From Geosiphon pyriformis uo1 (lineage: Eukaryota > Fungi > Glomeromycota): a stretch of 64,000 nucleotides of DNA. Below, one piece after another: positions 5,830 to 56,238 of this stretch. Location: the NCBI GenBank assembly GCA_016748015.1, contig JAAOMT010000599.1, forward strand, positions 62,001 through 126,000. Direction: 5' to 3'. Numbering within the stretch: position 1 is the first letter of the stretch; each line of letters starts with the position of its first letter. The notes under the pieces were generated by a model, which saw only the letters and a program-made list of their open reading frames with translations, searched no databases and was not told where the DNA came from. Both the position numbers and the translations under genes were made by a program.

Positions 5830-7455
5830 TTTACTGAGTGTTTTTCTAATTTAAAAACATAAAAAATTTTACTTTGTTTATAAGCATAATAATACATAAT
5901 TTTAAAATTTTTTTGAAAAGTATTAATAAAAAAACATATATTATTAATTATATATTTACTATTAATATTAAAGTTTAATATATAACAATTTGTTTTAAAT
6001 TTAAAAAACTTTGAATTAAATTTATCATATTATTTTTGTATTTAATAAATTAATTTTTTTAAATTAAACTATATTTGATTTATTATATAAATTATAAAAA
6101 ATTTGGTTATTTTGTTTTAAAATATAATTTTTCTATTTTTTTTAATAATTTTTTCAAAAAAATTTTTAAACAAATGTTTTCAAAAAAAAATCTGTTCTTA
6201 TTTGATTTTTATTTATGTTAAAAAAAATTTATTTTATATTTAATTGTTTTTAGAAACAAATTTTAAATTTAAGTAATTATTTTTAATTAAAATTCTAATA
6301 ATAATAACAAATAAATTCTACTTTTATCTGGTGTTCTCTTTAATAATATTTTTTTCTTCACAATTTTATGATTAAACAAGTTAAAAAAATTTAAAACTTT
6401 TTTTTAATCAGATTTTATTAATTTTAAAAATTAAATCTTATTTTTTTTGTTAATTTTTATAATATTGTTTTTTTTATAAATTTGGTTTTTAATGCTAATA
6501 TAGTTTTAAATAATATTTTTTGAAAAAACAATTAATGTTTTATTTTTAAGTTTTTATATATATTGTTAAACAATTAATTAATTTAAAAATAAATATTTTT
6601 AAGCTTTTGGATTCTATTACAGTTATAATATTAAAACTAGTTATAATATTTCTTAAAAATAATTTAATTATATTCTAATTTTAATAATTAATTTAATTTA
6701 AAAAATTATTACGTACAATTTAAAAAGAATAAACAATTTTGTTAAGCAAAAAAAAATTGTAAAATAACAAAAACTTATTTATTATTATTAAAAAATCGAA
6801 TCAAAACATAAATTAAAAACAAGTTTAATAATCTAAAAAAATTTTTGTTTAGTTTAAATTTGACTATATAGATTCTAATATAATAATTATTATAAATATT
6901 TATTTGGTTAAATATATAAACAAAATTACTAAAGTAGTTAAATAATTTTTTTTAATTAGATTATTATCTAAAATTTTAATTTAATTTTAGGTTTTTACAT
7001 TAATACTTCTTTGAAAAAAATTTATTTAAACTAATATTATCAATTTTTTAATAGTTAAAACTGTAAATAAATACTTTTTTGTAATTTTAAAAATAATAAT
7101 AGTTTTAAAAAAAATATTAATTTTAAAAAATGTTTTATTTTTAATTTGGTTAATTTCTTAATAAATAATTTTATAATTAAGATAAATAACATAAAACAAT
7201 TTTAAAGAAATTATTAAAATAATTAATTATGTATTTATATTTAATTTATTTATAAATATTATAATTAACCTAAAAGTTTTAAATATAAACAATTTTTTTA
7301 ATATTAATTATAAAATTGTTTTTGTTTTAAATTTAAATAATTTACTAAATTTTTAATTTAATTTTTTATAAAAATAAGCAAATAAAAATAGATAAAAATA
7401 CAATTTTAAACATATTAATATTATCAAATAGTTTTATTTAAAATAATTAATTTAA
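5830..7455. other. Extremely AT-rich tract, probably fully decayed TE sequence
   Basis: Line 5941-6000 has 4 G/C in 60 nt; no credible ORF. Confidence 0.5.
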
Positions 7456-8254: not shown

Positions 8255-10390
8255 TTTTTTATATTTTTTATTTTTAATAAGCATGGCCTAACTATTATTT
8301 AGAAATTAGAAACAAACTAAGAACTCTAAGGCTAAATGTAATTTATATGTTTTCTATATATAACTAGCTACTTGAATCAGTTTAAATTATACTATGTTAA
8401 TATATCAGCCATTCAGCTGTTTTTAAGAAATCAGTTTTAATATTATTAGACTTATATATCTAAAAAAACATCAAATTAGAAAATGTTTTATTATTAATAC
8501 CAATTAGAAGATCTAAATTACCAAATATGTTAATATTATCTATATAAGACTTTTTTTTTAGTAAAACCACTTCTATTTTCAACTTACCAACAACTTTGTT
8601 AAAAAAATTTAGATAAATTATAAATTCATTAATCTTAAAGCTAAGAACACTACTTAAAACCAAATTATCTTTAATAAATTGGTTAAACACAATAACCAAA
8701 AAGCTAACAGACTTAACAATTGATCCAACCAATACAAAAAGTTTGGCCAAAGAAAACAACTAAAAAAACACTAAAGTATTATTAACAATTACAGAAAAAA
8801 AGGCAAAAATCATTAAAGATAAAAATCCAAAAAAGCTTAAAAGAACAGAAGTTTTGACATAAGACTTAGAGCTTACAAAACAAAATGTAAATACTTTAAG
8901 AGTCTTGAAAGGAAAAGATAAAGACACTTTACAATTCATAATTAAATGGCCTATTTCTTAATACTTAAAGTAATGCTAGCACTCAGAAATTTTCTACCAA
9001 ATACAGTACTTTTTTAGCATACTGGTTTTAACTATTATAGTATCTAAGTTTACTTGAAAACCAGATATAACTAAAGCAAACTGAAAACAGTAACCAAAAT
9101 CAAAAAAACAAAGAATAAAACAAGTCTAATTACCAATCTAAAAAATCATATTACTAATCTTAAAAATAATACAGCCAGAAAGAAGATTAATTAATTTGGC
9201 TTTAAACTTATTATGAAACAAAATAGTTTTATTTTAATTGACCAAAAAAAAGATCTTAATACTATTCTTGTTCACTAATACTAACCAATAATTTAAAACA
9301 AACACAGCAATATTTAGCTCTTTAAAATGAACAATAATATACTGTCAAACACCAGCAGATTTCAGCATAACACAAACAATCTTATTAAAAACACCAAGTA
9401 CTGTCTTAATATAAAAATTACCAAAGATTTGGCAATTTTAAGAGTAACTAAATAAACAAAGCTCCAAAAAAGCAGTTTTTAAAAACTTTTAAGTAGTAAA
9501 TTCTATACAGAAAAGCTTCATATTGTTTTTTAATACTGATTTTATATCTAAAAAATTATGTACAAACTGAAAAACAGTCTTAACATAGCCAATTTAATTT
9601 AAAAAGTAGCACCAAGTATCAAAATAGAGACTATCTACTCAGTAAATCTTTGATGACTAGTAATAGTTTCCTAAATATTACTAATAACAGTATCAGAAAC
9701 CAGAAAAAAATTGAATCAGTTTCTATCTAATTAGCTCAGTTCTCAAGAACAAATAATTCAACAGAAAACTGTTGTTTTATTTTTAAAACTGGTAATAATT
9801 TGTTAAAAAAAATCACATTTAACAATACAATCAATAATTAATCTTGGTCTATCTTAAACAATATGCCAAATGATACAATAAAGATCTTATTTAGAATTTT
9901 ATTAGAAACCATAAAGAAGTTTGGTGTAACAATAGCAAAGACAAATGACTGTTCTCACTTTTTTAAACTTTTGGTTTTTTTGATTATTTTTTTTAAAGAA
10001 AAAATATTAGCAGCATTTAATGTAGAAACTATAAAAAAAAAGACCAGTTTGTTGATTAGTCTTTTATTATAAATTTTTGGGCTTTTTGAAAGAGTAAAAA
10101 CAACACTAAAACTAATTCAAATGTGTTTTTTTAAGAGAATTTTAACTGGTAAAAAACCAGCTAAAAATAAAAAAAATGTTTTAGCAACTATTAAAGACAG
10201 CTTTTTACTATTACTAACTAAAAGAAAAGCTTCTAAAATATTCTGTTTAGCTGTTTCTATAACAGAAAAAACTTCTTTGATTGAAACTTTATAAAATATT
10301 AAAAAAAAGATATCAGTTATAGTTTTTTTACTCTTTACTTTAGTTGTGATCATAAAATTAAAAAAACAAAGAGTATAAAATTTTTTTTGT
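8255..10390 (-). mobile_element. ORF1-only non-autonomous LINE derivative, decayed
   Basis: Degenerate ORF from 10353 to about 8400 with a decayed CCHC knuckle at about 8930-8975 (YFKY*EIGHLIMNC from C-x2-C-x4-H-x4-C). It is joined directly to a 3' UTR resembling 38500-38570 and an A-rich tail; no RT sequence. Confidence 0.65.
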
Positions 10391-12892
10391 TTTAATTATA
10401 TTTAAATATTATTAAAGTTATAATTATTTAAAATTTAATGTATATTAATATTAATATTATTATTGTTTTATTTATTATATCTAAAATTAAAAAAGTTTAT
10501 TATATAATTTAAAGTATTTTAAAACATTTATTTTGTAAAATAGTATTGGTTTATTTTATTATAAACAATATATTAGTTTTGGTTTTAGATAAAATTAAAC
10601 TAAAATAGATAATATTATAAAAAATTAAACAAAAAAAAAAATAGTATTAAATATTATTTTTAATTTATAAATATACTAGTATTTTTTGATTTATATAGAT
10701 AATAATGATTTTTATAATATAATAATTAAAATTAACTTTGGTAAAATACTTGGTATAAATAAAAATTTACCAAATAAAAAGATTATTAGTCTGTTTAAAA
10801 TTATTAATAAGTTATAAAAACACTATAATAATTATATATTAGAATTAATTTTAGATTTATTAAATCTGTATTTGTTATATAAATTTATTTTTATATTATA
10901 AATAAAAATTTAAGTTTTTGTAATAAAATTCATTGTAAAAAATATACAAAAAAAAATAAAATTTTTTAATTAATATTATAAAATAAATAAAAAATTTATA
11001 ATATTGTTAGATAATATTATTTATATAAAAATTAAAATTAAGATATGTAAAAAATTTATTAAGTTTTTAAATACATTTACAATAATTATGTTAACAAACT
11101 TTGATTTAATAATAATTATATAATACATAATAATTTAAATTAAAATAAAATTTTTTTTATTTTTTTAAAAAATTTTCTATAATTTTCTTTTATATAAGAT
11201 TAAAAAACATGAATATTTGGCAATTATACAATAAACATTAAATTTGGTTTTAAAATTGACAAATTAAAGCTATAATTAACATAATTTTCTATTTAGCTAT
11301 TAAAGTTTTTATTAATAATACAATTTAGCTTAAAAATAGTTACACTATTATTTAATATATTTTAAACATTATAAATAAATTTTTCAATATTAATTAATAA
11401 TAACAAAACTGTAATTATTCTTATTAATTAAAAAATTTATAATATTTTTTTATATATTAATGGTTTATTTATGTTTATTGCCAAAAAAAAATTTTATAAA
11501 TATTTAAAATTTGTTTTTAAACTAAATAATAAAAAAGATATTTTTTTCTTTAATATTTTTTAATGTTTATTTGATAATTTTTTGGTAAGCACCAGCATCA
11601 GTTTTTTGTAAAAACCAAGTAACAGAAAAGTCTTAAAAATAGCCACCAATAATTTGAAACTTGTATTTAATATTATATTAATTAATTGTAGCTGTTCTTT
11701 TAAAATTGTCTAATTATTTAATTAGATTTTGAACATTATTTCTAAATAATAATAATAGAGTGTTGTTTTTTTGCCTTACAGTAGTTTGTATGACTTAAAA
11801 AACAACCAAAATGTTTGTTTATATAAAGTCAATAGCTATTGACTCAAAAATAGCTGTTTGTATAGAATAATTTAATTTAATTAAATAGAGATTAAAAACA
11901 AAAGTGGTTTGATAGCTTTTTTTTTGTTTTAAAAAAAGTTTTAATTAACTAATAAACAGCAATCCAAATATAAATTTAATAGTTCAGATATTCGAAATTA
12001 GAAAGTTATTGTTTAAAAGTTGTAAAGTATAAGAGCTAATTAATATTATTGTTTTTTTTTAAAAAAAGCTTCAAAGTAAGTTTGATTAAAAAGATAAGTT
12101 ATATCTGCTATATAGGTTTTAGTTAAATATTTATTTAGAAGCCAGTTTTAAAAGTCTTAAAATTGTTTGCTAAATTGTTTTTTAACAGAAAAGCAAATCA
12201 AACAAGAAAACAAAAGATTGAGTTTAATAAAATCTAGATTATTTTTGTTATATACTGTAAAAGATTTTTCTAATTGTTGTAACAAATATAAATAATTATT
12301 TATACAATAAAAATAAGTGAATTTTGACAATTTTACAAGAAGCACTACTTTTATGTTATAAATTAAAGTAACAAGCTAATAAATAGTAAAAAAAACAGAA
12401 TTGTAAGATAATGAAAATAATCAAAAAAAGAATTATAATAAAAGAGCAAATTAAATAAATAAGAATTTAATGTGCATAATTAGTCTCATAAAAATCACAG
12501 TCATGAATTTTTTTTAGAAATTTAAAAGTAAAAAATAATCTGTAATTGTTAACAAAATAATACTACTGCTATTATTCTATGTCTTAATTCAGCAATTCTT
12601 AGAATTAATAACAAATATCATTGTGCTTTTTAATTATTTTTTTATTTAATAAATTACAAAAGCAAGCAATTGTTTTTTAAGTTAATTTTAATAATATAAA
12701 TTAAGAAAGAAAAAAAATAAAATATTTAAATACCAACAAGTAATTTTTATTCTAAGATGTTTAAACATTTAAAGATAAAAAAAGAAAAATAAGTGATATA
12801 AGAGAAAGTAATTAATAGTAGATTTTATTTTGTTACTTTGATTATATTTTTCTATAACTAAGAGATTTATCATTTATATAATTATTGAAAAT

Positions 12893-17450: not shown

Positions 17451-18117
17451 CAGTCAGAAAGATTTCTTGATTTGTCAAATGAAATTAGAGAAGTTTCTGG
17501 AAATGATTGTAGAACACTAAACAAAATTTCTGAAATATTACAACATTCAATTATTCTTTTTCTTTATAAGTCACCACTGCCATTAAATAACAATAACAGA
17601 ACTATTATATCTGATTTGTTGTTTGTAAGTATTATGAGAGTTTTAATAATAATTAACATATAGTACAGTACTGTTGCTCTTGGTGTTTTGGAGACTGGTA
17701 GTGCTTCAGAAACTGGTAGTGCTTTGAAGACTGTTGCTGTGAGTATTAATAAAGTTATTCTGAATCAAACTTTGGCTAACAAAATTACTTTTTCTCTATA
17801 TTGGAAAAAAAATTAACAGACCTACAAGCGAGAATAATGGCCTAATAGAATCCTTCAAGAACAAATTTGTTAATGAGACATTTTTTGAGCAAATTAACTG
17901 GGAATAAAGTTCAAATTTATCTTTCTTTAAGAAGAGAAATGTAACTAGTAATAAAACTTAAAGCATAAAAATTCTAATATATATTTAATAAATATGTTTT
18001 TACATCAACTTTGGCATCTGCAATTAAAAAAAGACTCTATACTAACAATCATATTCATCATTTAACTAATATTTAATATTAGTAAGTGAAAGTTTAACTG
18101 ATAGTTTTAAAAATATA

Positions 18118-18800: not shown

Positions 18801-18849
18801 ATAAACAAAACTGTATACAATACAATATATTTCTAACTTCTTAAAAAAT

Positions 18850-21590
18850 ATTTATTAGGCTGTTACACAATTAACTTGATAAGCTTTGAAAACATAATTA
18901 CTTAAAAAAGGTATTAAAAAGTTAATAATAGATAATAGTTGTGATTTTATTAACAGATTTATATTTTTTAATGATCTGTTTTTTCACTTGTTACTGAAAT
19001 TAGTTTTCAAGTACCTAACAATGTTTTTTTAATTTATTTTGCTTTAAAAAAGTCTATTTTTTCATTTGTGCAATTTCACTAAATTTTTTTATTTTTTTGC
19101 TTAATATTTATTCATGGCCAATATCATAAAAAACACAATTAGAGACATTTGGATTTACAAACTGTGTTTTTTTTATCTGAACTCGAAATTAATTTAATTT
19201 AGCAATAAAGCTAAAATATGTACAAGACCTGTATATTTTACTTTTAGAATATTTGATGACATTAAAAAAGTTAATATGTAATCTCTCAAATTTGATACAG
19301 CTACATATTGCAATTTCTCAATATTGTTGTAAAGGTGTAAAAGAAATCAATGATTTGAGCATTTTGTTAAATTTTTCAAGTATTGTATTATAGTTTTGAT
19401 GTTGATTTAAAAGTTTAGATCAAGAAATTACAATTCTTTTTTGAATCAGCTTGCAAACTTCAGGCTTTAATTGTAGTCATTGTTCTTTATTAGCAATTTC
19501 AATTAATTGGTAAATAAGATGGTGCTGAGCAGACTAAATTGGTGCAAACATTTGTTTAGCTACAAGTCTTAATAAAGACCTATTAAAACAAATTTCAGTG
19601 CAAAAGTTAATAATTGCTTGTAAATAAAAAAAGACTTGTTTATACTTTAATCTGAATATGAGATTTGTTTTATTTTGGGCCCATTCTAAGTAATCTTCAA
19701 CAGATAAATTTTCTTTAGAAACAATATATAACTACATTAATTCAAAAGTCATTGCATACCTATATATATTATATATCAAATCTCATAACTTATGATAATT
19801 AGAACATTTTTTAAAAAACTATAGTTAACTTTTACTTCGATATTTCTGACATTGTGCAAAGTATTTTATATCAATATTTTAATTTAGCTTAACAAATGCT
19901 TTTAGCATATTTATCTCTTTATGAAGAGCACTCAGAACCAATATAAGCCAAAAAAAGTTTTTTTGATTGTTTGTGCACAATAATAAAGTACTCTATTATA
20001 TGTTACTACAACTCATTTGTGGCTATTATCTTTAATACAAAAACCTTTTGAATATTAGCAATTAAGTTTGGATTTATGGCTATTGGATCAGAAACATATA
20101 ATTGCAGTATATAAATCTCAATTTTCAGATACAATTGTGCATTTTCAAATATATAAGAATAAGAAATGGGTTTTCAGTAATGTTAACTGATTTATTCAAT
20201 TGATTTATCTCAGTAATTGTTGGTAATTTGTTACAACATGCAGAACAAACTTGCTTCTTATTATCAATGTTAGACAATTAACAAGCTGGGGATTTTTTTA
20301 GAGAACCAATTTGGCTTTGATGTTGTATTAATTCATTAATTATATTTGTTTCTTGACTTTTCTCTACACAAAACTTTTCTAAAATAATAATAAGATAATT
20401 AATAAGTTCTTTATAAATTTTATTTATCATATCTGAAGTTAAAAAAAATAATTTCTCATATTCCTTTTTGGAAAGTTCAAAATATAACCAAGGATCTATA
20501 TTTTGAATATTATTAATTTGATTATAATTAAAAACAACAAAATTTATAATGATATTAAATATAACTGTATTATATCTACAATCTAAGTAATTTTTTTGAC
20601 TTTTTTGTTCATTGTCAAAGACTAAAAATAAAAATCTTTTGTGAAGCTTTGACTGTTCTATAGTCAAACTTTCTAATCAGTTAGTAAACTTTTTATAACA
20701 ACCAGAACTTATAATATAATTATCAATATTAATGACTATTTTCGATCTTACTATTAAATATTTGATTGCTGAAGTGGCTAAATTAATAACAAAAACATAT
20801 TTTAAGTGCCTTAATTCATATATAGCATTAACTGCTATAGCATACTTAAAAAGTTTTTCTCTTTTATTTTGATATTTATTTTTATTATAAATAAGAGTTT
20901 TAATAAATTTTATAATAACTGAATTTTATTTTGCAAGCCATATTAAAAAACAATACTCTAAAAGACTATCTAGATTAAAATGGTCATAATTTTTTTTAAA
21001 ACTTATTATATTATTATACAAATTATTTTGTTCTTTTTTGGAAATTTCTGTTATGAATTTAATATGATCCTGTTAATTATTAAATACTTCATGTAATTGC
21101 TTTTTAATGTTACATTTTCAGATAATAATTGTTGATTAATATTTTTTAGCTCCTGTATTTGTTTTATATAAACTTTATATATTGGATCTAGCAAGAATAT
21201 TTGGACTTCAAAATCAAAAAAAGTTTTTTCTAATTCTAATAACTTGTTATCATTAGAAAATCTTGGTCTTTTTCTTTCTGTTTTTTTTAAATCTAAAAAA
21301 GTTGAATCATTTGATTTAATAATTCGTTTAATAAAAGACTTTTTAACAATAATCTAATTATAATGTCTTTCACATAAAGAGTAATTGTTTAGAGAGTTAA
21401 GTAATATAGTTAATCTAGAAAAATACTTGATTATTTCTGTTATTTTTTTTGTTACAACACTAGCTAATACATGTCACTATCTTTAATTTTCTTTGGTTTT
21501 ATATTTTACTAATTGACTTTTATTATATTCACTGATAAAAAATTCAAATAAATAGGGTAAGTCTTTGACATTTATTATAAAGCAAGACAT
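18850..21590 (-). pseudogene. Putative DDE transposase pseudogene (Academ/DUF6589-like)
   Basis: ATG at 21590; LCERHYN; VFDNEQ; Cys ribbon; VVVTYNRVLY (from VTCDGVPY); LVLSALHKEINMLK (from PGALHEEMNMLK); NYNTILEKFNK (from GxDAILEExNK). Reconstructions use only C>T/G>A reversal; family assignment is from motif recall. Confidence 0.6.
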
Positions 21591-21761
21591 AATTTTAAAT
21601 CCAATTTAATAAAAAACTACTATGTAAAGTTGTATAGATTCTTATAGATTCTAAAACTTTGTATTTATAAAAGTATGTTTCTATTATTAGTTTTGATTTT
21701 TATTTGAAGTATTTGATCAATAAAGTATTATAAAATTTTTTATGCTAATAATGTTAAACAC

Positions 21762-22745
21762 TATTACCAGAGGTTTTTGGTCTCTTTTCTTGAATGTTGT
21801 TAATGTCTGTTTGTTGTGAATTCACGTTTTCAGAAAGTAGTTGGATCTCCAGTAACTGAATTTATCTTCAAATTATCTCCTATAATTTGAACTTGCTGGG
21901 CTTATGAGTGGAATGGCCAATTCCATGCCAGTTGCTTTATGTAGTTATGTTGTAGTAAACATCAACTCTTTCCCAAGAATTGCTCATCTGAAAGCTCACT
22001 AAAAATGTGTAGTTACTTTGCTGTGAAAGTCAACTCTTCTACAAGAATCTTGTCTGTAGGCTACCCTAATGATTGTAATAAGAAAAAATAAATAAATAAA
22101 TAAAAGAAATGTAAAAGAAATAGGATTTTATCAAGAGAAACGTTTTTCTATTCAGGCCTGAAGTCACTAACAGTTTACTGAAATTGGTAGCTAATCAATT
22201 TCAAAATGTTAGTTGGGTTTTGGGGATTTTCCAAGTGCAATAATTAAAGAATTTGATTTTTTGAATTATTTGATATTTATTTCTTTTTGTGTGTGTAGGA
22301 ATGGTTCTAAGTGATAAATCTAAAGTAAGATACATTTTCTCAAAGTAAGATGCTCTTCTTTTATACAACTTGTCGTAACACTATTCTATGAACTTGAACT
22401 TTGCTATTTTCTACAATTTCGCTAAACTAAAGATACATTTTGGCAAACTACAAGTTATTTCTGCAAACTATTAAATATTTTGGTGAACTATCAATTATTT
22501 TGGCAAATTTCTACAAATTTTGGTGAACTTTTGAATGTTACATAGTTCAGGGTATTGCATAATTGATCATTGCAATTAGATTATATTTGTGTTGTGTACA
22601 AATTGGGTTATTAATTTAAATGATAATTTTGGACATTTTGCTAATGTAATAAGTGATAATTTGAAATGATAATATATGCTAATTAATGATAGGATTTATA
22701 AGATAATTTCATGCTAAATAATATCTCTAATTTCATTTGATAACA
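21762..22745 (-). repeat. 3' LTR of element A
   Basis: Direct repeat of 30664-31647; contains a ~20-bp tandem array (attttggcgaacta-like) at about 22430-22530. Confidence 0.97.
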
Positions 22746-23433
22746 TAATCTCCTTCTCAAGACTGAGCTCCGTCAAAGTCCAAGTACTGTCTGTAATTTC
22801 CAGATAGTAATCCAAAATTATTGAAAAAATTTGGTCTGAAAATTGTTGAAATTTCAGTTCTGTAAGCTTTTCAATGTATTGAATCTTCAAAGGTCGTAAA
22901 ATTGGGTTTTGTAGGACATTTTCACAGGTGTGAAATAGGTCATAAAGTCTAAGAGCAGCTCTGAACTTGTAGTGACTGTTTGTTGGTCCAGCTGTTGTCT
23001 TGAATTCATTGCAGAGTTGTTTTTGAATAGCTTCTTTTGTGAGGTTTGCTGTTGTAAGTTCCAGTTTCCATTCGTAGAGTGTTTTTCCAATGTGGAAATA
23101 TCTATAGATTGGAGAATATTCAGTGTTTTCTTCATTGAGACACAGTTGAAGTCTTTGTTGAATTGTAGCATTTGGTGGAATACTAATTGGAGTGAGCATT
23201 AGGTTTTCTCTTAAAGCAAACTTTAAAAGTTCTGGGAGGTGAATTCCAGAATAACTTCTTGTGTTCTTCTTATATGGGTAATATTTTTGTGAATTTGGGG
23301 CTAAATTTGTAACTACTTCTGTTTGGGTATAATTAATGTGGTTTCCAGTAACAGTAATAGATAATTTGGGTATTGTTTTTAAAGCTAACATTAGTTTTTG
23401 GGATAATTGTTAAATGTTTTGAGGAATAGTCAT
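22714..23433 (-). pseudogene. ORF3 of element A, uncharacterised protein of about 240 aa
   Basis: ATG at 23433 in frame with the 225-aa ORF 22714-23391 (one intervening TAA); homologues at the same position in B, C and D. Confidence 0.8.
22746..22760 (-). promoter_or_regulatory. Polypurine tract of A
   Basis: Minus strand GAGAAGGAGATTA immediately before the 3' LTR. Confidence 0.8.
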
Positions 23434-26400
23434 TATAAGAGATTTGAAATAAAAGAAAATTATTTTTGGTGTATGGGTTTTTATGTTATTTTTTTTTTTT
23501 CTTTGTTTTGTTTTTGGTGAGATTGTTTCTAAATTATAAGAGAATAACTAGTAAAATTAAATTAAGTGTTCAGGTTGGAAGATTGTTCAATGACAACTAT
23601 TGGTTCTAAGTTTCAGAGAATATCTTCGGGATTGACTAAAGAGGAATGTGTACCAATTTGTGGAATTAATGGTTCAAAATTGTTTCTGAAATGATAGTGT
23701 TTCAAATGATCTCTATGTGCAACTTTTGCTAGGATTTTGTTATCAAGTCTTAGCTTGTATGATCTATTGCCTAGGACTTCATGGATAAAGAATGGTCCAT
23801 CCCATTTATTTTCAAATTTTCCACTCCATTGTTTTTCAGCTTTAGTTCTGTGTAAGAGAACTTTGTTTCCAATTTTAAATTCATTGGTGACTGGAGACAA
23901 TTTGTCATCATGCCATTCTTTTTGTCGAGCTTGGGAGTGTTCAATATGGGTGGCTGCTATTCGTCGTTTTTCTTCCAATGTGCTAAGCAGAGTGTAGGCT
24001 TTTCGCTGAAGCGTTTCTTGGAAATTGTTTTCATTGATTGGTTGTGCTGAGTATGTTTCTACTGTGAAACTAATTGGTAATGTTGCTGTCCTTCTGTAAG
24101 TTAAATTAAATGGTGTGTGTTTTGTGGTATCTTGTTTTAGTGTTCTGTATGCTAACAACATTGATAGAATAAAGATATCTCACTCTTGCTCAAAATTGGT
24201 TAAGACTTTGGCTAATAACTCATACAATGTTCTGTTAAAATGTTCCACAAGTCTGTTTGTTTGTGGATAGTAGGGCAAAGACAGAGGTCTTTTGACATTA
24301 AATCGTTTGCAAATTTCTTGTATTAGGTTGTTCACAAAGTGTGTCCTCTGATCGGATAAAAGTTCAATTGGACATCTATGTCTACAAATGATGTTTTCAT
24401 AGATGAAATTTGCTACTGATTTTGCATTTGCTCGTTGAATGGCTTTGGCTTTGGGCCATTTAGTAAGATAGTCTACAGCTACTGCAATATAATGGTTTCC
24501 TTGAGTGGTAATAGATAGTGGTCTGACTAAATCAATACCAATTCAGTCAAAGAGTTGTCTAACTTTGATTGAATTTAATGGTTCAGTAGGGTGTGTTTTT
24601 CCTTTTCTTTGACAATTATCACAAGATTCAACATATTCATGAATGTCTTTTCTCATTTGAGGCCAAAAGTAGTATTCTAGTGTTCTTTGGATGGTGCTAT
24701 CTTTTCCGAAGTGTGCTGATAAAGGATCTAAGTACATGTTGTATAATATGGTCTCTTTTTTCTGTTCTTGTATTAATCTGAGTGGTTTGTTTGAGTTTTT
24801 GAAATTTTGATAATAAATAATGTTGTTGTGTAGAAAATATTGTTTGGCTTGCTGTTGTAGTCAATGTTTTTTATCTAGAGACCAATCTGTTGGAATTGTT
24901 AATATTTCCAAATATTGTTTGAGATTGTTATAGTTTTCTGAATTCATTGTTTGTTGGCTCTTTTGGTTGGTTAAGTTGAGTGTTGGTTTTTGTGTTTTCT
25001 AATCTTGTCTTATTCTGGAGAGACAGTCAACATTGGTGTGGAGTTTTCCTGGTTTGTGATGTACTATGTATCAATAGTTTGCTAGAAATCCTGTCCATCG
25101 GGTTTGTTTTGCATTCAGCTGAGTATTTTTGTTTTGAAGCCATTTGAGTCTAATATTATCAGTGATAATATCGAATTTTTTAGGCCTGAAATAAAAGTTG
25201 AAGTGATGTAGGGCCCAAATTATGGCTGCTGTTTCTAGTTCTGTGGCAGAGTAGTTTTTCTCAGCTGGTTTTAATGTTCTGCTAGCATAAACAATTACTC
25301 GCTTATTTCCATTGTCATCTAATTGTGATAAGATGACACCAAAGGCAGTATACGAAGCATCTGTAGCTAGTCGAAATTGTTTGCTGAAATCTGGGTAAGC
25401 GAGGATTGAAGCTGTTGTCAGTTTTTCTTTGAAAATTCCAAAAGCTTTTTGGTGTTTGGTAGTTCATTTGTATTCAACGTTTTTGGTGGTAAGCTGGTTG
25501 AAGGGTTTTGTAATTTTCAAGAATCCTTTGATAAACTTCCGATAATAGGATGCTAATCCTATGAATCCTCTTAGTTCTGTAGTGTTTTGAGGAGTTTTGA
25601 AGTTTTTGACAATGCTGATTTTTCCAGGGTCCGGTTTGATTCTATCTTTACTAACAATATGACCAAGGAAGACCAGGCTTGTTTTTCCAAAGTAGCATTT
25701 TTTGATGTTGAGTTTTAGTCCTGCTTTTTGTAATCATTGAAAAACTTCTCACAGGTGTTTTAAGTGTAATTCGAATGATGGAGAATAAACATCAGTATTG
25801 TCAAGATAAATGACTACTGACTTTCAAAGGAGTTCTTGGTACACAACATCCATTAATCTCTAAAATGTTGCTGGTACATTGCATAATCCGAAAAGCATTA
25901 CATTGAACTCGTAATTTCTGTCTTGGGTGATGAATGCTGTTTTGGAGTGATCTTTGGGATCCATAGCAACTTGCCAGTAACCGCTTTCTAAATCTAGTGT
26001 TGAAAAATATTTGGATTTTCTAAGGGCATCTAACATGTTATCAATTTGGGGAAGGGGGTAGACATCTCCAATTGTAACACTGTTGAGTTGTTGATAATCA
26101 ACACAAAATCGGATCTTTCCATTTTTCTTTTTAATTAGCACTACAGGTGAAGCCCAAGAACTCATGAAGGGTTGGATGAGCCCATTGTTAAGCATTTGTT
26201 GTACTTTTTTTCGGATGAATTGGTGGCTTTCTGGAGCAATTCGATATGTTTGTTGTCTTCTTGGTTTGGCATCTCCTGTATAAATTTGGTGTTGGACCAA
26301 ATTGGTTCTTCTTAAGTCATTGTTGTTTTCAGCGAAGATATCGGCAAATTCTATAATTAGCTCTTTGAGCTGAATCTGTTGTTGTGGTTTAAGTTGTCCC

Positions 26401-26839
26401 ATGTTGATTCAAGATAGTTTTTCTATAACAACATGGTAGTTTTCGGAGCTGGGGTTTGGGTTGATTTTTGGTAGTGAATGTCCAATAATTTCAGAGAAAT
26501 CAGGGACTGTTTGGGGTAATTCTTGTTGAAATATATTATTGTAAATAACTCCAATTTCTAAATTATTTAATAAAATTATGAGGTAATTATTGGGGTTGTA
26601 AAAAGTAACTCAGACTTTCTTTGTTTCTTCTGGAATATAAATGTTTGGGATCTAAATATTATGTTTCAAGCAGACTTGTTCATTGGACTCAAAAATTTGT
26701 TGTGTGGTTGTTGGCTTTGGGCAGGTGTAGATTTCTGGATGTTCTCTAAAGGGTGAGATGGTAATTGGTTGTGGAAGTCTGAGAATCTGGTGGGATTCAT
26801 TCTGTATATTAAGAGCTATATTAACTGGAACTGTGAATC

Positions 26840-27240
26840 GTCCAGTTGAACCAAAATTTTGGGTTCCTCTATCGCTTTTTCCTAATTGTTCTCTTTGATT
26901 GACTAGTTGCAAACCCAAAATGTTGATTAAGGGTAGATAAATAGCTTGGGCAATTTTTTCAGCATGTTTGATCTTGAATGGTTTGTCAGTTTCATTTTAA
27001 AGCATCACTGTAATGTCTCCAGTATATCCAGCATCAATTATTCCTCCTCTGACATTGATTTCTTTGCTTGCCAAAGAGGACTGGGAGGTGATTTGAACCA
27101 TTGCTTCTGGCGGAATTTCGAGTGCAATTTTGAGGTTGATTTTTGTGAGAGATTTGGGTTTGAGAACAAGAGTATCCTTGCTTGGATATCTTAGGTCATA
27201 TCCAGCATCAATTTCATGTGCTTTTTCGGGTTTTATTTCT
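26840..27240 (-). pseudogene. dUTPase domain within pol of A
   Basis: All five trimeric dUTPase motifs: DAGYDL, SQSSLA, GIIDAGYTGDI, EKIAQ, RGTQNFGSTG. Confidence 0.92.
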
Positions 27241-30200
27241 TGTCCGTTGTTGTTGAAGTATTTAAGTTGTAAGGCAGGCTGATTTTTAATAAGGTAGATG
27301 GGTGTTGTTTCAATTTCTTCCATTGCTTCAGGTTCTCCAAATTCAATTTTATTCTCATCATTTTCGCTGGGCAAAGGGATACTAAGAGCATAGCATTCAG
27401 GACACCACTGTTCATCACAAGGCATAATGCATTCTTCACATAGTCTAATGTTTATTTGCTCTAATTGTTGAATTTGAGCTTCTTGGGTTGGGTAGGTGTG
27501 ACTTGCAATTTGGTGGTAGACTTCTACTTCGTCTTTGTAATCGAATTCAGCTAATTCTATGATGTATTCAATGTATTCTGCTTTCTTTATTTGACAAACA
27601 TCTTTTTTGATAGCTCTATTAATTAATGCCATTGCTAAGTCGAAAATCATTTCGGCATCATGGGGGTAGTGATAAAGTTTGTTGAGAGCACTGTTGTATG
27701 CTACATTAAAGAGTGTTTCTCTTTTTACTTTTTCTGAAATTGATAAAGCATATTGGCAGGTCTGATTGCAGACTCCTCCTCTCATGGCTACATCAATCCA
27801 ATTGCATTCTTCCGGTAGCATATCTTCACAAGTCAAACAAGGAGTGTTGTCTCATTTTCCGCTTCTTTTTATTAGATGGCCCCATTATTCTCTGTGGCAA
27901 GCCTTGCAGTAATAACAAGTATGATTTTTATATTCTTCTTCAGGTAAAATGCAGGCTCCCATTAACAATAGTTTCTTGTGGTAGTCTTTACATTTAAGGA
28001 GAATATAGGGGTGTTGTTTCCTTGGTTCAGGTTTTGAGTAAGGGATATTCCATCCAGAGGTTTCAGATTCAGAGTATGAGGTAAAATGTTCTTGTTCTGT
28101 TTCATTGGCCCAGTTGGACGTTGATCCAAGAGCCATGAATGTTTCAATGAGGGGTTTTTCCTCTTCCAGTTTGAATTCAAAAGCCAGGGTTTTTTTAGAG
28201 CATTTGTTGAATGTACTACAAGTGGCAGGTACCCAGGCGTGTTGTTCTTGGTAGGAGATTGTTAACTCTTGTGTTTCTCAATTCAGATTAGCATTGGCTT
28301 TTTAAAGCCAATCATTTCCGATAAGAGCTTAGTACTAGGGTGCATCCATTACAAAAACTTTGACTGGAATGGTAATTCCATCAAGAGTGAATGGAAAATT
28401 GTCAATTTCTTCTACTGGGGTCTTTTTCATGCCATAGGCAGTGATGATTATTGTTTGAGCTGATTGGTCGACATTTCTCTTCAACTGTTGCATTAACTGG
28501 TAGATAATAATGCTTCTGGCAGATCCACTGTTTAGGATCAAGTGAATTGTCTTTTCTTCGACTTCTGCTTCAATGTATATAGCCATGATTGCTTTTTGTT
28601 TATTGGTGGCTGCATTGCTAAGCAGGAATGATGACTCATTTGCTTCAAACTCAAAAGGGAATATATCTGAAAGGTTAGTGTTTTCAGCAATTCTGGCTGA
28701 TGAGATTATGGTGAGAATATAGGAAGGGTTTTGTTGTTGTGCTGCAGCTCTACCTTCCGAGAGTGCTGTATGGTAAAAATCCTGTTCTTCTGGCATTGTT
28801 AAATAACTGGGTTGAGTGTGGTAGTGGTTGGGTCTTGGTTGAATGGAATTTCGGGGAACTAATTGGTTGTTCGAACTGATTCTATTGTTGTTTACTTGGT
28901 ACTGGTTTTGTGGTGTGAATTGATTTTGTGTAATCAGTTTTCAAGCAGGTACTTGATAATGTTGTGTGGATGGTTGTTAGTATTGCTGTTGGATTGGCTG
29001 TAGAGCAGACTGATAATAGTTATTTTGGTATTGGGGTCTTGGTGGATAGTAAGCTGGTGGTGGTGGTTGATAATAAGATTGCTATAGTAAAGGGTAACGT
29101 TGATTACTCCTATTTTGTTGGTCTTGTTGTAGCTTTCTGCAATCTCTTTTCCAGTGGCCAGAGATTCCACAGTAATGGCAATTCTGAGGCTGGTTATTAG
29201 AAAGTGGTGCAAAGTTATTTTGATTTTGTCTTTGGGGTGGTTGATATCTTTGGGGTTGCTGTTGTTGTTGATTGGTGAAATAGTTTTCAACCTTCTTTGT
29301 GAGTTGGTCAATTTTTTCCTCAGCTGCTAAGCTGGTTTTTCCAATTGCCAAATTTACAAGTTTTGTGCAATTGGCCTCTTCTATGGCCATTTTGTATCTT
29401 TTTGCATGCTGTATGGCAGAGTTTAAATCTTCTGGCGCATGTGAGTGAACCTTTTTAATTAATTTATCTTTTAGACCAGCAATAAATTGATCTAAGATTT
29501 GAGCATTGGAATAATAATTATTTGTTTCAAGTTGGCAAATTTGTCTGAGAAGTTTGTTGAATTTCTCGATATAAGTCATAACAGATTCGGAGGGTTCTTG
29601 TTTGATATTTCAAAAACGATTTTGAAGGGTAATGAAGGTATTATTGTCGGTGAACTGTTCAAGGAAGGCTGCTTTGAAAGCGTTCCAATCATTGAATGGG
29701 GCGGCCAAGTTTTCAAATCATTCTCCTGCTGTTCTTTTGAGAAAGTAGTGAATTGTTTTTAACATTCTGGCAGCATTCCATCTATTTGCATCTCCAGCTT
29801 TAGTAACTTGGTCAAGCCATTCTTGGGGACTGGTCTCAATGTTTTTTCCATTAAATTCAGGGATTTTTGCAATGTATGTTGTCATTTTGTCTTCTTCATT
29901 TTCACTGTCTATTGATTCTTCTTCAGATATTTCAGGTTCGTTTTCTTTGTTCACTGCTGTCTCAAAGTGTTCACTTTGATTTTTAGCTAGAAAGTCAAGG
30001 AGATTAGAACTAGTTTGAAGGGGTTCTTGTTGTCTGATGGGACTTCTGAGTGATGTAAAATCTTCTGGTCTTGCAAATCAATTCAAAGGTGAATTAGTCA
30101 TTTGTGCTTGTGCAAGTGAAGCTGGAAAAGGTGTGATAGTAAGTGGAAGTTTTGAACTGGTTCCTTGTTCAGGTGTTTGTAAATGTTTGGCAGTTGTTTT

Positions 30201-30650
30201 TGGTAGTGTTGGAGTATTTGGGGTGGTTTTTGAGTCTTGTTTTAATTTGTTTTTGTCTTTGTTGCTTGTTTCTGTTTTTGATTCAAAATCAATAAAGTAT
30301 TGAGACTGCACTGGATATGTTTTTTCACAGTATTTGATAATGTTAAAATTAAGTTTGTGAAAGTAAGTGGCAAGTGTTTTGCTATTAAGGTTTTCAGTTC
30401 CCAACTGTGAATAGTGTGCTAAATTATTGTAAAGGTTGCTTCTAACTTCTGAGATATTGTAATTTCCAAAAAGATAATTGTTAATGTGGTTTTCAATGTA
30501 TTGGTATACTGATTTCTTGACAACTTCAATTCCGTCTAAAATGTTGAATCTTTGCTTGCAGTGGGTGTAAATTGATTGGTAATACTCTAGAGTTGTTGCG
30601 TCTGGTGTGATTGCCACTTTGAATTTTGTTGTTGCTGTGTTATTTCTGTA

Positions 30651-30661
30651 GGAGAGCACCA
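30651..30661 (-). promoter_or_regulatory. Primer-binding site of A
   Basis: TGGTGCTCTCC, 2 nt inside the 5' LTR, complementary to a tRNA 3' end ...GGAGAGCACCA. Confidence 0.85.
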
Positions 30662-30663
30662 AA

Positions 30664-31647
30664 TATTACCAGAGGTTTTTGGTCTCTTTTCTTGAATGTT
30701 GTTAATGTCTGTTTGTTGTGAATTCACATTTTCAGGAAGTAGTTGGACCTCCAGTAACTGAATTTATTTTCAAATTATCTCCTATAATTTGAACTTACTG
30801 GACTTATAAGTGGAATGGCCAATTTCGTGCCAGTTGCTTTATGTAGTTATGTTGTAGTAAACATCAACTCTTTTCTAGGAATTGCTTGTCTGAAAGCTCA
30901 CTAAAAATGTGTAGTTATTTTGCTGTAAAAGTCAACTCTTCTACAGGAATCTTGTCTGTAGACTACCCTAATGATTGTAATAAGAAAATAAAAAAAATAA
31001 AATAAAAAAAATGTAAAAGAAATAGGATTTTATCAAGGGAAACGTTTTTCTATTCAGGCCTGGAGTCACTAACAGTTTACTGAAATTGGTAGCTAATCAA
31101 TTTCAAAATGTTAATTGGGTTTTGGGAATTTTCCAAGTGCAATAATTAAAGAATTTGGTTTTTTGAATTATTTGATATTTAATTTTTTTTGTGTGTGTAG
31201 GAATAGTTCTAAGTAATAAATCTAAAGTAAGATACATTTTTTCGAAGAAAAATGCTCTTTTTTTATACAACTTGTTATAACACTATTCTATGAACTTGAA
31301 CTTTGCTATTTTCTACAATTTCGCTGAACTAAAGATACATTTTGGCGAACTACAAATTATTTCTGCAAACTATTAGATATTTTGGTGAATTATCAATTAT
31401 TTCGGCGAATTTCTACAAATTTCGGCGAACTTTTGAATGTTACATAGTTTAGGGTATTGCATGATTGATCATTGCAATTAGGTTACATTTGTGTTGTGTA
31501 CAAATTGGATTATTAATTTAAATGATAATTTCAGATATTTTGCTAATGTAATAAGTAATAATTTGAAATGATAATATATGCTAATTAATGATAGGATTTA
31601 TAAGATAATTTCATGCTAAATAATATCTCTAATTTCGTCTGGTAACA
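30664..31647 (-). repeat. 5' LTR of element A
   Basis: Direct repeat of 21762-22745, same length. Confidence 0.97.
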
Positions 31648-31721
31648 ACACTAATTAGATACAAGAATTTTTTGTGAATTATTCCAAAATTAATCTATAA
31701 AATTTAAAATCTTCCTAACTA

Positions 31722-36399: not shown

Positions 36400-38432
36400 T
36401 TAAAGATTTATAACTCTAATACATCTTATATATCTATAAAAAAAATTCCAAACTTTTTATATCTAAACTTAAAGCACTAAATATTACTATTACAACTTAT
36501 TAAGTTTACTTATAATACTGTCAAATTGTTTTTATAATAGTAACAAATATAAGTTTTATATTTTTTTTTGGTAATATACAAGCTTTTATTAAAAAAAGCT
36601 TTTTGCTATAATTCTTATATTTGAGTAAAATGTAAACAAATTATTTCTTAGATTTCAGTTTTAAGTATAAAACATACTAACTGTTAACTGGTTTTATTGT
36701 AAAAATAAATTATTGACTAATTTTTTTAAACCATAATAATATTTATTATAATGTAAATATTTTAAATAACTGTTCAGTTTTTTCAGCTCAATCAGATTAA
36801 AAATTAAGTATTATATAAGTTTTAATAATTGGAAGAGTTTTTTTTTCAAATTCAAAAACTTGGGCTTTTTTTGATTATTTGTTGAAAATATTATAAGTAG
36901 TTAATATTTTAATATATTGTTTTTAGTAAAAGATTTTTGGTTTTTGTATTTCTCAATCTAAGTTAATATTGGCTTTTAAAAGCCAGTTATTTTTAATAAA
37001 AGCTTAGTATTAAGATATATTTATAATAAAAACTTTAATTGAAATAATAATTTCATTAATTATAAAAAAAAATTGTTGATTTTTTCTACTAATGTTTTTT
37101 TTATATTATTAATAATTACAATAACTGTTTAAGCAAGTTAATTAACATTTTTTTTAATATTGTATTAACTAATAAATAATAATATTTCAATGAATTTATT
37201 ATTTAAAATCAATTAAATTAATTTTTTTTAATTTTAGTTTCTGTATACATAGCAATAATTGCTTTTTGTTTTAAAGTAATTATATTGTTGAGTAAAAATA
37301 GTGATTTATTTGCTTTAAATTCGAAAAAAAATATGTCTAAGATGTTAATATTTTTAGCAATTCTTGCTGGTCAGATTGTAATATTATTATGAAAAAAGTT
37401 TTGCTATTATGCTATAACTTTACTTTTCAAAAGTACAGTATAATAAAAATTCTGGTTTTTTGGTATTATAAAATAACTAGATTATATATAAAGATATTTA
37501 AATAGTTATTAATTATTATTGTAAAGTACTATTTGATTATTGGAATTAATTCTGTTGTAATTTGGTTAAAAACAATTTTTAAACTAAAGTTTTAATGAAT
37601 AATAGATAAGTAGTAATAAATAATATAATTACTATTGCTAAAAAAAATATTATTAATTATTCTGTTTTTGTTGATTTTTTTGTATTTTTCTGTAATCATG
37701 TTTTCAATTTTTAGGAATTTTACAATAATGGCAGTTTAATAATTAAGATTAATTGTTGAATAAAAAAAAGTTTTTTTGGTTTTGGCATTGAAATGGTTGA
37801 TATTTTTGTTAATTAATAAAATATGTTTTAGCTTTCTTGGTAAGTTAATCAATTTTTTTTAATAATTAAACTGGTTTTTTTAATTACAAAGTTGACAAAT
37901 TTGGTATGATTGGCTTCTTTTATAGTTATTTTATAGTTTTTAGCATATATTATAGCAGTTAAATCTTTAAGTATATATAATTAAACTTTTTTAATAAGTT
38001 TATTTTTTAGTTTAGTAACAAATTAATCTAATAGTTAAACATTTAAATAGTAATTATTGCCTTCTAACTGTCTAATTTTTTAAAAAAATTTGTTGAATTT
38101 CTTAAGATAAGTTATAACAAATTCTGTAAATTCTTGTCAAATATTTCAAAAGTGATTTTAAAGAGTAATTAAGATATTGTTATTAGTAAACTGTTTAAAA
38201 AAGACAGATTTAAAAGTTAACCAGTCAACAAAAAATACTGCTAAGTTTTTAACCTATTTAGCTATAGTTTTTTATAAAAAATAAGAAATTGTTTTTAGCA
38301 TTTTGGTTGTATTCTATCTATTAGTATTTTCAACTTTAATAACTTTGTCAAGCTATTCTTGAAAACTGGTTTTAGAGTTATTTCTAAAAATTTAAAAAAT
38401 CTTTATAATATAAATAGTAGTTATTTTTTATG
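36400..38432 (-). pseudogene. Old A-like element F, left part (capsid-protease-Cys-rich relic)
   Basis: 37250-37470 aligns with 28570-28800; 37840-38400 aligns with 29290-29870. Confidence 0.75.
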
Positions 38433-42547: not shown

Positions 42548-43378
42548 TGTTACAGGTGACTATTTCTGGTGTTGGATTAAAGAACAAACCTGTAACTTGA
42601 TACTCAAATCTAGTTGCAGTTGATAGTAGTCTGAAGATTTGTGTCTGAAAGGTTTGTATCTGAAGGGTTTGATTGAGTTCTTTGTATAATAGACAGAGAT
42701 TCAATGGTAATAGTTTTATCTGTAGCTTCTCAAAACTGCAGTTTCATCAATTTTTTTCTCAGCTTGATGGCTGGTATTCCTCCTGGTAAGCTATCTTCAA
42801 TCAAGTGTTCTACCCTTATTTTTGGGTCTTTTACCAGTCACGTTTATTCTAATATCAGTATCCTGTGCATTAATCCTCAATAGAGTTAGTAAACAACAAT
42901 AAAATTAAGGCAAAAAATAAAGAAAAAAAAAGAAAATAAAGAAAGAAAAGAAATAAGCTAAGGCGATTTGCAAGTTAGTATTCCATCAATAGCCATGATC
43001 AAGAGCTATTGTTCCAGTGTGGTTAAGTATTAATTACTATCAACATAAAGTGTTAATAGTGGCAATAGGTTTGAGATAACAAACAGTTATTTATTTGTGG
43101 TTTGGAAAGTTGTCTAAATAAAATCTAAACAGAGAGATCTGTTTTTTTAGCTTCTAATCTTACTGTTATATATACATAATTGAGATTTCTTAATTCCTCA
43201 ATTCTTCACAACAGGAATCCTGGAATTCTGGAATCCTGTAATTTCTTATAAGAATCTTGTAATTCCTGAAATCTTGCAATTCCTGAGAGGAATCCTGGAA
43301 TTCTATATTTTACTATGTCTACTTCTGATTGGTTAATAACTATGCTAATATATATTCTCTATATTTCTATGAGTAACA
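42548..43378 (-). repeat. 3' LTR of B (831 bp); PPT AAAAGGAGAGAATAA adjacent at 43379-43393
   Basis: Direct repeat of 51603-52473. Confidence 0.97.
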
Positions 43379-51602: not shown

Positions 51603-52473
51603 TGTTACAGGTGACTATTTCTGATGTTGGATTAAAGAACAAACCTGTAACTTGGTGCTTAAATCTAGTTGCAGTTGATAGTGGTCTAAAAGTTTGTGTC
51701 TGAAAGGTTTGTATCCGAAGGGTTTGGTTGAGTACTTTGTATAATGGACAGAGATTCAATGGTAATAGTTTTATCCATAGCTTCCCGAAACTGCAGTTTT
51801 GTCAATTTTTTTCTTAGCTTGATGGCTGGTATTCCTTCTGGTAAGCTATCTTTAATCAAGTGTTCTACCCTTATTTCTGGGTCTTTTACCAGTCATGTTT
51901 ATCCTGACATCAGTACCCCATGCATTAATTCTCAATAGAGTTAGTAAACAACAATAAAATCAAGGCAAGAAATAAAGAAAAAAAAGAAAAATAAAGAAAG
52001 AAAAGAAATAAGCCAAGACAATTTACAAGTTAGTATTCCGTCAATAGCCATAATTAAGAGCTATTGTTCCAGTGTGGTTAAGTATCAATTACTATTAACA
52101 TGAAGTGTTGATAGTGGCAGCAGGTTTGAGATAACAAACAGTTATTTATTTGTGGTTTGGAAAGTTGTCTAGATGAAATCTAAACAGAAATGTCTGTCTT
52201 TTTAGCTTCTAATTCTATTGCTATATATACATATTTGAGATTCCTCAATTCTTCAATTCTTCACAACAGGAATTCTGGGATTCATGGAATCCTGCAATTC
52301 TTTTGAGAGGAATTCTGGAATTTTGGAATCTTGCGATTCCTTGTAAGAATTCTGTAATTCCTGGAATCCTGCAATTCCTGAGAGAAATCATGGAATTTCA
52401 TATTTTACTACATCTACTTCTGATTGGTTAATAACTATGCTAATATATATTCCCTATATTTCTATGAGTAACA
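51603..52473 (-). repeat. 5' LTR of B (871 bp)
   Basis: Direct repeat of 42548-43378 plus one extra 40-bp unit in the ggaatcctg array. Confidence 0.97.
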
Positions 52474-55105: not shown

Positions 55106-56175
55106 TTTTTTTTTTTTTATTTTTTTATTTTTATGTTTATTATTACTGTTTTTTTTTTTGTTTTTTTTTAACTGGTTTAGAAGTGTTTTTTTTGTAAATT
55201 AATGTTTTAAATATTTATTTTAGTTTTCTACCAAATAATCAAGAAGATTAGTGCTAGTATAAATTAATTTTGGCTATTAAATTGGGCTTTTAATAAAGTT
55301 TTTTGGTCTTGAAAATTGATTGAGTAGTGAATTTGATATTTGTGTTTAAGCAAGCAAAACAAAAAAAAGTGTAATAAAAAATAGTAGTTTAAAATTGGTT
55401 TTTTGTTCAGATATTTGCAAGTGTTAAAAAATTGTATTTATTGTGTTGAATATTGTATAAACTGATTAATTGTTTTTTTTTGTTTTTTTTTTTTGTTTTA
55501 AATTCAGACTTAAATTTAAGAACAAATTGTAAATTAACAAAATATTTTTTTTTGCAAAACTTAATAATATTGTAATTAAGTTTTTTATAATAAATAATAT
55601 AATTATTAGCACTAATATTTTCTGGGTCTTTATTTGAGTAGTAAATAAAGTTTTTAAGAAGATTTGTTTAACTTCTGTAATATTATAGTTTTTAAAAAAA
55701 CAATTATTGATTTAGTTTTTAATGTATTAAAAAAGTGTTTTCTTAAAAGCTGTAATTCTATTTTGAATTTCAAATTGTTGTTTGAAGTAAGTGTAAATTA
55801 ACTGATAGTATTCTAGAATTATTATGTTTAATACAGTTACTATTTTAATTTAGTTATTGTTATAATATTTTTAGAAAAGTACCAAATATTATTAGAGATT
55901 TTTTTATCTTTTTTTAAATGTTGTTAATTCTATTTTGCTGTAAATTCACATTTTCTGAAAGCTGTTGAATTTTTAATAATTGAATTTATCTTTAAATTAT
56001 CTTTTATAATTTAAATTATTGGATTTATAAATAAAATAACCAATTTTGTATTAATTGTTTGTATAGTTACTTTGCAGTAAAAGTTAACTCTTTTTTAGAA
56101 AATGCTTATCTGAAAACTTATTAAAAATGTGTAGTTACTTTGTTATAAAAGTTATATCTGTAAGCTATCTTAATG

Positions 56176-56238
<63 letters not shown>

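Follow-up and report, generated by a model that had tools for sequence, protein, structure and literature searches.

Transposons in a Geosiphon pyriformis window decay by directional C:G>T:A change that is not confined to CpG

The window analysed here is a 64,000-nt stretch of the Geosiphon pyriformis uo1 genome (GCA_016748015.1, contig JAAOMT010000599.1, positions 62,001–126,000, forward strand). Its GC content is 27% and, as far as annotated, it is transposon DNA throughout; no host gene was found in the 64 kb. Long terminal repeat (LTR) elements make up 41.2% of the G. pyriformis genome (PMC11952901). The first-pass annotation had described directional hypermutation, likened to repeat-induced point mutation (RIP), reaching beyond CpG and centred on one Ty3/Gypsy retrotransposon, here called element A. 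In window coordinates, it comprises the following features:

21758..21761 and 31648..31651, no strand: target-site duplication ACAC, read from the sequence
21762..22745, minus strand: 3' LTR, 984 nt, with an A/T letter at 24 of 54 transition sites
23562..30662 (lower end about 23560), minus strand: gag-pol pseudogene in a single frame, from the frame and domain matches
30651..30661, minus strand: putative primer-binding site just inside the 5' LTR, beginning TGG, proposed from the sequence
30664..31647, minus strand: 5' LTR, 984 nt, with an A/T letter at 30 of 54 transition sites

Element A showed all the Ty3/Gypsy features: LTRs, a target duplication and the order gag–protease–reverse transcriptase (RT)–RNase H–integrase. 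Its gag-pol contains capsid, zinc knuckle, aspartyl protease, dUTPase, RT, RNase H, integrase and SH3 domains and runs through 2366 codons with 27 stops and no frame switch; including the last one, the 28 stops were 17 TGA, 6 TAA and 5 TAG. The nonsense-rich but single frame noted in the first-pass annotation was thus recovered for element A, but it is not general: the coding region of element B, the second Ty3/Gypsy element, had 5 frame switches and 42 stops in 2516 codons, and the oldest long interspersed nuclear element (LINE) had 4 switches and 29 stops in 1816 codons.

Between the integrase and the 3' LTR of element A lies an extra frame of 231 codons (22714..23409, minus strand), which is stop-free although gag-pol averages about one stop per 88 codons, and which had no Pfam match. 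A cysteine-rich stretch between protease and dUTPase (27400–27900, minus strand) is conserved in paralogs and also lacked a Pfam match. Both LTRs start with TATTACC on the plus strand (21762 and 30664), where an inverted terminus predicts TGTTACC; the LTR termini of element B are the canonical TG...CA. The dUTPase stands between protease and RT in both Ty3/Gypsy families (26655–27230 and 47029–47790, minus strand), and many annotated dUTPase-domain "hypothetical proteins" of G. pyriformis are fragments of these elements. Element A shares the domain order protease–dUTPase–RT–RNase H–integrase with Ty3/Gypsy elements with dUTPase (PMC2864245). An RT search gave matches of only 46–64% identity. 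Pattern matching against metagenome contigs (72 matches) and viral contigs (154 matches) yielded no relative for the element A family alignment, and runs X2 and X3 gave next to nothing.

The LTRs of element A differed at 61 of 984 aligned columns, with 54 transitions, 7 transversions and no gap (980 scored columns); all seven transversions were A/T swaps, five of them within one A-rich tract. In the first 240 nt, for which the first-pass annotation had reported about 14 differences, all transitions in CpG and non-CpG contexts, 236 columns could be scored and showed 14 transitions and 0 transversions; four of these transitions fell at CpG, and all five quoted site pairs were present. The LTR pair of element B carried 72 transitions, 4 transversions and 2 gaps (819 columns). 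With both pairs pooled, 126 of 137 differences (about 92%) were transitions, a transition/transversion ratio (Ti/Tv) of 126/11 = 11.5, or about 21 without the A-tract swaps.

When a C in either copy was enough for a column to count as C, the transitions by 3' base were 28/46 at CpG, 34/114 at CpC, 35/221 at CpA and 28/212 at CpT. Per C and per copy, the rate was at least 0.44 at CpG and 0.093 elsewhere, an at least 4.7-fold difference. One of the two tests set in the first-pass annotation was whether the excess would vanish once CpG was masked; it remained, with 98 of 549 non-CpG C sites differing. Set against the 11 transversions of the two pairs, these 98 transitions rejected a Ti/Tv of 2 (p = 1.5e-8) and of 4 (p = 0.004). 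Old CpG sites hidden by decay were ruled out as the source of the non-CpG excess, because CpC and CpT, the contexts that cannot hide them, alone gave 62/326.

Short-read contigs of run X1, which is possibly the window's own sample and so widens the element A family but not the sampling, were matched to element A at 80% likeness (65,727 contigs) and showed 1312 variable places, 1170 of them transitions and 142 transversions. An assembly-error artefact was rejected: the differences are substitutions, depend on context and are present in 120 annotated paralogs as well as in the short-read contigs. Chimeric LTRs are unlikely because elements A and B both keep their target duplications. On positions 13800–21760, 8319 contigs of X1 revealed no single-copy part; 16 of the 18 differences listed there were transitions, and at least 8 contigs of 148–195 nt were identical to the window.

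Since LTR pairs are unpolarised, the direction of change was taken from paralogs and from outgroups to a DUF6589-like relic described below. The paralogs were the best 120 of 407 matches to a 284-aa stretch of element A, all annotated G. pyriformis proteins and mostly 60–88% identical to it; these fragments of 156–497 aa are blind to nonsense changes, silent changes and intact polyproteins. We used the 517 columns with at least 15 paralogs in which element A agrees with a majority of 60% or more, and classed residue differences by the single base change from the element A codon, dropping 251 ambiguous and 255 multi-step cases of 2729. Per opportunity, G:C>A:T reached 0.098 (1719/17493), A:T>G:C 0.008 (244/29873) and each transversion class 0.001–0.004, so that G:C>A:T exceeded the reverse change 12-fold and each transversion class 25–70-fold. 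Element A itself departed from the family majority in 31 columns, 28 by G:C>A:T, one by the reverse and two by multi-step changes, and at 10 of its stop columns the paralogs mostly carried Q, W or R.

On the sense strand, both C>T (665/8386, 0.079) and G>A (1054/9107, 0.116) occurred. APOBEC-type editing of cDNA produces G>A on the sense strand only and affects retroelements only. This signature was absent here, and editing during reverse transcription was excluded, as both changes occur and a non-retroelement gene is affected too:

18823..21578, minus strand: decayed intronless DUF6589-like gene, not a retroelement (Pfam match below the curated cut-off)

This gene is a member of a multi-copy family of mycorrhizal fungi, intronless and about 880–950 aa long, with many copies in Diversispora, Gigaspora and soil metagenomes; the family is likely a mobile element of undescribed type. 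Of 145 differences in 509 conserved protein columns, 128 needed only G:C>A:T transitions. Against outgroups from 9 of 57 metagenome loci (L001–L057), conserved G:C sites had become A:T by transition at 214 of 575 and had changed by transversion at 8, and 17 of 1369 A:T sites had changed in the reverse direction. The outgroup copies carried burdens of their own of 2–14%; two loci, L006 and L007, had a moderate G:C>A:T excess (92/636 and 54/628). Amino-acid exchanges in 12 homologs leaned mildly to G:C>A:T in some (P0245: 26 vs 5) and not in others, and are too coarse for a cross-species claim. LTR, LINE and non-retroelement sequences all show the same decay, and the process is thus not tied to reverse transcription. 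The hypermutation is real and strong: it is directional (C:G>T:A), affects both strands and is not limited to CpG.

A true RIP-like defence would leave such a transition share (126/137) and such a direction in the family. It would be RID-dependent and homology-triggered, would act in many weak rounds during a cryptic sexual cycle and would have its own context preference. C:G>T:A far above all other changes, a RIP feature, was clearly present, and 114 of 114 scored copies were affected, at 4–21%; that count is biased, however, as only proteins of 156–497 aa were searched and intact polyproteins could not appear. The sequence context did not follow RIP. The order by 3' base was CpG far above CpC, then CpA and CpT about equal: CpC exceeded CpA plus CpT in the LTRs (p = 3e-4) and in the DUF6589-like relic (p = 0.013), whereas CpA and CpT did not differ (p = 0.50 and 0.57). 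In the relic the counts were CpA 37/126, CpT 32/123, CpC 31/71 and CpG 29/54 (saturated), with non-CpG contexts at 26–44%. The CpA preference and TpA gain of Neurospora-type RIP thus appeared neither in the LTRs nor in the relic, and CpG was the top target. The composite RIP index was −0.61 for element A and negative in 9 of 11 regions, being positive only in the two oldest tracts (+0.12 and +0.16). The CpG observed/expected ratio (O/E) across the window was 0.04–0.27.

The 5' base also mattered. In the protein set, on both strands, rates were 0.141 after T, 0.094 after C, 0.065 after A and 0.056 after G; the 5'-T excess was significant there by site (p = 5e-14) and in the LTRs (52/191 vs 46/358 for other bases, p = 6e-5). 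In the DUF6589-like relic, C and T were about equal and both above purines. Old relics retained GpC (O/E 1.62) and were depleted of TpC (0.83). APOBEC3- and DddA-type enzymes prefer TC. These observations on both strands would suit a cytidine deaminase that acts on the DNA of chromosomal repeats on top of CpG decay, prefers 5'-TC/CC and may have come from bacteria. We consider such an enzyme distinctly unlikely: the preference is only about 2.3-fold, sites after a purine still change at 0.056–0.065, there are no clusters or strand runs, and no candidate gene was seen, although no dedicated deaminase search was made. TpCpG, the main target in Pucciniomycotina, was not the main target here, as the TCG share of TCN lay above the ACG and GCG shares in four of five regions and above the ACG share in the fifth.

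The 5' order T > C > A ~ G also matches a dipyrimidine component, and Geosiphon forms light-exposed bladders, so ultraviolet (UV) damage at pyrimidine dimers was considered as an addition to CpG decay. UV leaves CC>TT tandems and changes confined to dipyrimidines. No tandem excess was found, either in the LTRs (0 at 114 CC/GG sites) or in the proteins (22 vs 20.1 and 11 vs 10.9 expected), and the non-dipyrimidine triplets ACA and GCA (0.068 and 0.042) mutated much like ACT and GCT. Such damage would moreover be genome-wide, and we regard a UV contribution as highly improbable.

For the kinetics, a minimum of 120 scored columns per paralog left 114 of the 120. The transition burden per copy was 4–21% (median 9.6%), with modest overdispersion (phi 1.8), and it followed the transversion burden (rho 0.34, p = 2e-4). 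Paralogs shared 9377 changes vs 10,205 expected; sharing was no more than chance, a star-like pattern, and the changes therefore arose after insertion. RIP makes bursts of same-strand changes within a copy. Here, strand overdispersion among copies was absent (chi2 113.3 on 114 copies), as were same-strand runs (neighbour fraction 0.542 vs a null of 0.539), although many weak rounds could mask or blur such clustering. Nor was there a bias towards linked repeats: in element A, the one element compared, the LTRs were affected at 24/302 (0.079) and 30/302 (0.099), no worse than the internal region at 32/395 (0.081). On the other side, RID has been stated to be present in the clade of arbuscular mycorrhizal fungi (AMF) (PMC8298701), and a RIP-index signal has been reported outside Dikarya, in Zoophthora, with caveats (PMC11105155). 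Taken together, a RIP-like defence seems quite unlikely.

Kimura two-parameter distances of the LTR pairs were 0.066 and 0.102, which is 3- to 10-fold above a transversion clock at Ti/Tv = 2, a rough figure given the few transversions. The first-pass annotation held that LTR dating would be invalid; the inflated distances bear this out in part, while whether the ages are wrong or merely need a rate of their own depends on the single-copy rate.

The first-pass annotation had also described LINEs ending in near-pure AT tracts, which purine/pyrimidine-seeded alignment confirmed. Such seeding gave 34 clusters vs 3 and 0 in the null and tied positions 5900–7400 and 10300–11560 to LINE copies, with alignment scores of 627 and 543 vs shuffled maxima of 152 and 101. 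About 70% of the reference G/C in both tracts is now A/T by transition, counted against a related copy, not an ancestor, and with a scoring that favours transitions. The measured rates predict an equilibrium GC content of 10.7% (0.107), in agreement with the poorest tracts of the window (6–13%). These near-pure AT tracts are thus what is left of LINEs once they have reached the predicted equilibrium of 11% GC. Decay down to 10% GC in relics far diverged from other window copies is a further point against homology-triggered RIP.

The same annotation read the LINE motifs VYTDGS, VYMDGS and VYIDGS as successive stages of decay. The motifs exist (at 60902, 39851 and 501) but belong to different subfamilies: the VYTDGS and VYMDGS copies are only 47.6% identical in protein, and the codons ACA, ATG and ATA could all derive from one CpG codon, so they do not form one decay series. 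The remaining repeats of the window are as follows, with G/C counts referring to the same kind of alignment:

300–5750, 38500–42540 and 52480–55000 (all about): other LINE copies
5900..7400, plus strand: near-pure AT tract, LINE relic, GC about 0.10; 340/503 reference G/C now A/T by transition, 71 kept
10300..11560, plus strand: near-pure AT tract, LINE relic; 260/361 reference G/C now A/T by transition, 54 kept
36500..38400, minus strand: gag/protease region of an older and further decayed element A copy; 407/682 reference G/C now A/T by transition
42548..43378, minus strand: LTR of element B, with target duplication CCAC
51603..52473 (about), minus strand: other LTR of element B, from the LTR pair alignment
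55290..56230, minus strand: older copy of the element A gag start and LTR end; 151/284 reference G/C now A/T by transition
59700..64000, minus strand: least decayed LINE copy, GC about 0.40, with VYTDGS at 60902

A LINE fragment at 7450–8020 with about 30% GC and sharp borders sits within tracts of 6–9% GC; it is either a nested insertion of more recent date or a patch shielded from decay. An AT-rich stretch is duplicated at 31722–32542 and 58518–59249, its GC content of 17–20% falling to about 10%; the two copies still diverge mainly by transitions (98 vs 29).

In our assessment, it is somewhat more likely than not that the decay is a slow and cumulative process in which cytosines carrying methylation in every context deaminate. 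Dense all-context methylation was one option raised in the first-pass annotation and is our best reading, whereas the RIP likeness claimed there failed on context, index, strand clustering and linked-repeat bias. The elements behave like methylation-driven decay at an extreme. A transposon copy would insert and then lose cytosines singly, on both strands and in every context. The fungus would methylate the copies densely at CpG and non-CpG sites, with DNMT1/DNMT5-type enzymes presumably acting at CpG and a DIM-2-type enzyme elsewhere. The resulting 5-methylcytosines (5mC) would deaminate to thymine and stay unrepaired, and the decay would be confined to silenced repeat DNA. Deamination may occur unaided or with assistance from the methyltransferase; so large an excess tilts the balance towards poor repair or enzymatic help. 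Two features expected of passive 5mC deamination were found: CpG highest with non-CpG also raised, and independent, time-proportional events on both strands. On this reading, the mutating contexts of these elements would carry 5mC.

Data from related fungi point the same way. In Rhizophagus irregularis, 32.5–49.5% of all cytosines are methylated by liquid chromatography–mass spectrometry (PMC8298701), a level probably too high for CpG alone in so AT-rich a genome, and the AMF clade is stated to have DNMT1, DNMT5, DIM-2 and RID (PMC8298701). Transposable elements (TEs) are CG-methylated in R. irregularis (PMC8647823) and carry CG and CHH methylation in Phycomyces (PMC11258239). DIM-2 occurs in early-diverging fungi (PMC7862722), and DIM2 methylates CG and non-CG sites (PMC11315935). 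The plant TEs of wheat (PMC2996936) and Welwitschia (PMC8275611) likewise show C>T in CG and non-CG contexts with CG highest, GC-poorer older elements and a faster LTR clock; the case here differs in its fungal host and in relics that go down to 10% GC.

Several points weigh against methylation as the cause. Wheat TEs methylated in all contexts have a Ti/Tv of 2.8 (PMC2996936), a quarter of the 11.5 (126/11) found here, and the plant-size ratio of about 2–3 was not seen. The known mitotic Dim2 mutator of Zymoseptoria tritici, which does not need sex, resembles our case in its spectrum (>95% C>T there, about 92% transitions here), but over 98% of its changes fall at CpA and CpG is spared (PMC8016269), unlike CpG at the top with CpC > CpA ~ CpT here. 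According to a review, DIM-2 of Neurospora prefers CpT and 5mC is near-undetectable in early-diverging fungi (PMC13297926); neither known DIM-2 context fits the observed CpC and 5'-T. Finally, the metagenome relatives of the DUF6589-like relic are not CpG-depleted (O/E 0.88–1.25), and the decay is therefore not general to that family.

A genome-wide process would fit the same data: ordinary cytosine deamination left largely unrepaired, with only the CpG surplus due to methylation and the unselected transposons merely recording it. Weak uracil excision could be the cause, or long-lived, rarely dividing nuclei in which damage outruns replication errors. It would yield changes in all contexts, on both strands, independent and clock-like, and would account for the very low transversion share; the non-retroelement family, with far lower summed contig depth, has decayed at least as much, and the window offers no host gene that would speak against such a process. 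The dUTPase of both Ty3/Gypsy families may be a weak, speculative hint of a uracil-rich setting. We nevertheless consider it unlikely. The 5'-T and CpC preference is not explained by it alone, and the TE excess over introns in wheat is transition-specific (PMC2996936). Repeat-targeting, like an active process, is accordingly a candidate property, unproven on the repeats covered here.

Beyond methylation-driven decay, Glomeromycotina may possess a cytosine mutator of their own, enzyme-assisted, repeat-directed and meiosis-free, with a code of CpG > CpC > CpA/CpT plus 5'-T; we rate this a tentative and rather doubtful possibility. If true, it would be a genome defence outside Dikarya that takes elements to about 90% A+T and to which CpA-based RIP screens are blind. 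Known fungal systems match only in part. RIP in Neurospora and other Pezizomycotina shares the directional C:G>T:A change on both strands, the nonsense-riddled colinear elements and the AT-rich end state, but has the CpA/TpA signature, strand clustering and linked-repeat bias missing here, where the index is negative. The TpCpG hypermutation of Pucciniomycotina (PMC3318451) is likewise a non-ascomycete C>T excess in TEs with 5'-T in its motif, but it is confined to CpG, whereas here TCG outlasts ACG or GCG and the 5'-T bias stands at non-CpG sites.

A screen of 1,239 species found RIP-like signatures in ascomycetes only (PMC12543289), and the parts of it that were searched contain no Geosiphon entry. 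For Gigaspora margarita, PMC8647823 cites a test in which no RIP was detected, and two further studies use the composite index (10.1101/2025.06.16.659975; PMC12210899). No description of such a spectrum in Geosiphon or AMF was found in the literature covered, from which the genome paper of Geosiphon and a survey of fungal methylomes were missing.

Surveys thus place RIP-like mutation in ascomycetes and none in AMF, yet their criteria are CpA/TpA indices or the enrichment of k-mers, and the spectrum described here is index-negative while it takes about 10% of the cytosines from each copy of the main family and as much as 70% from relics. Should it prove general, it would explain why these genomes are so rich in AT and why the Geosiphon annotation contains many broken "genes". 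Transposon bursts in AMF would then be dated too old by LTR and Kimura distances unless these are given a rate of their own, and a precise methylome prediction would follow. A link to RID or to meiosis would make the spectrum relevant to the old debate about sex among AMF.

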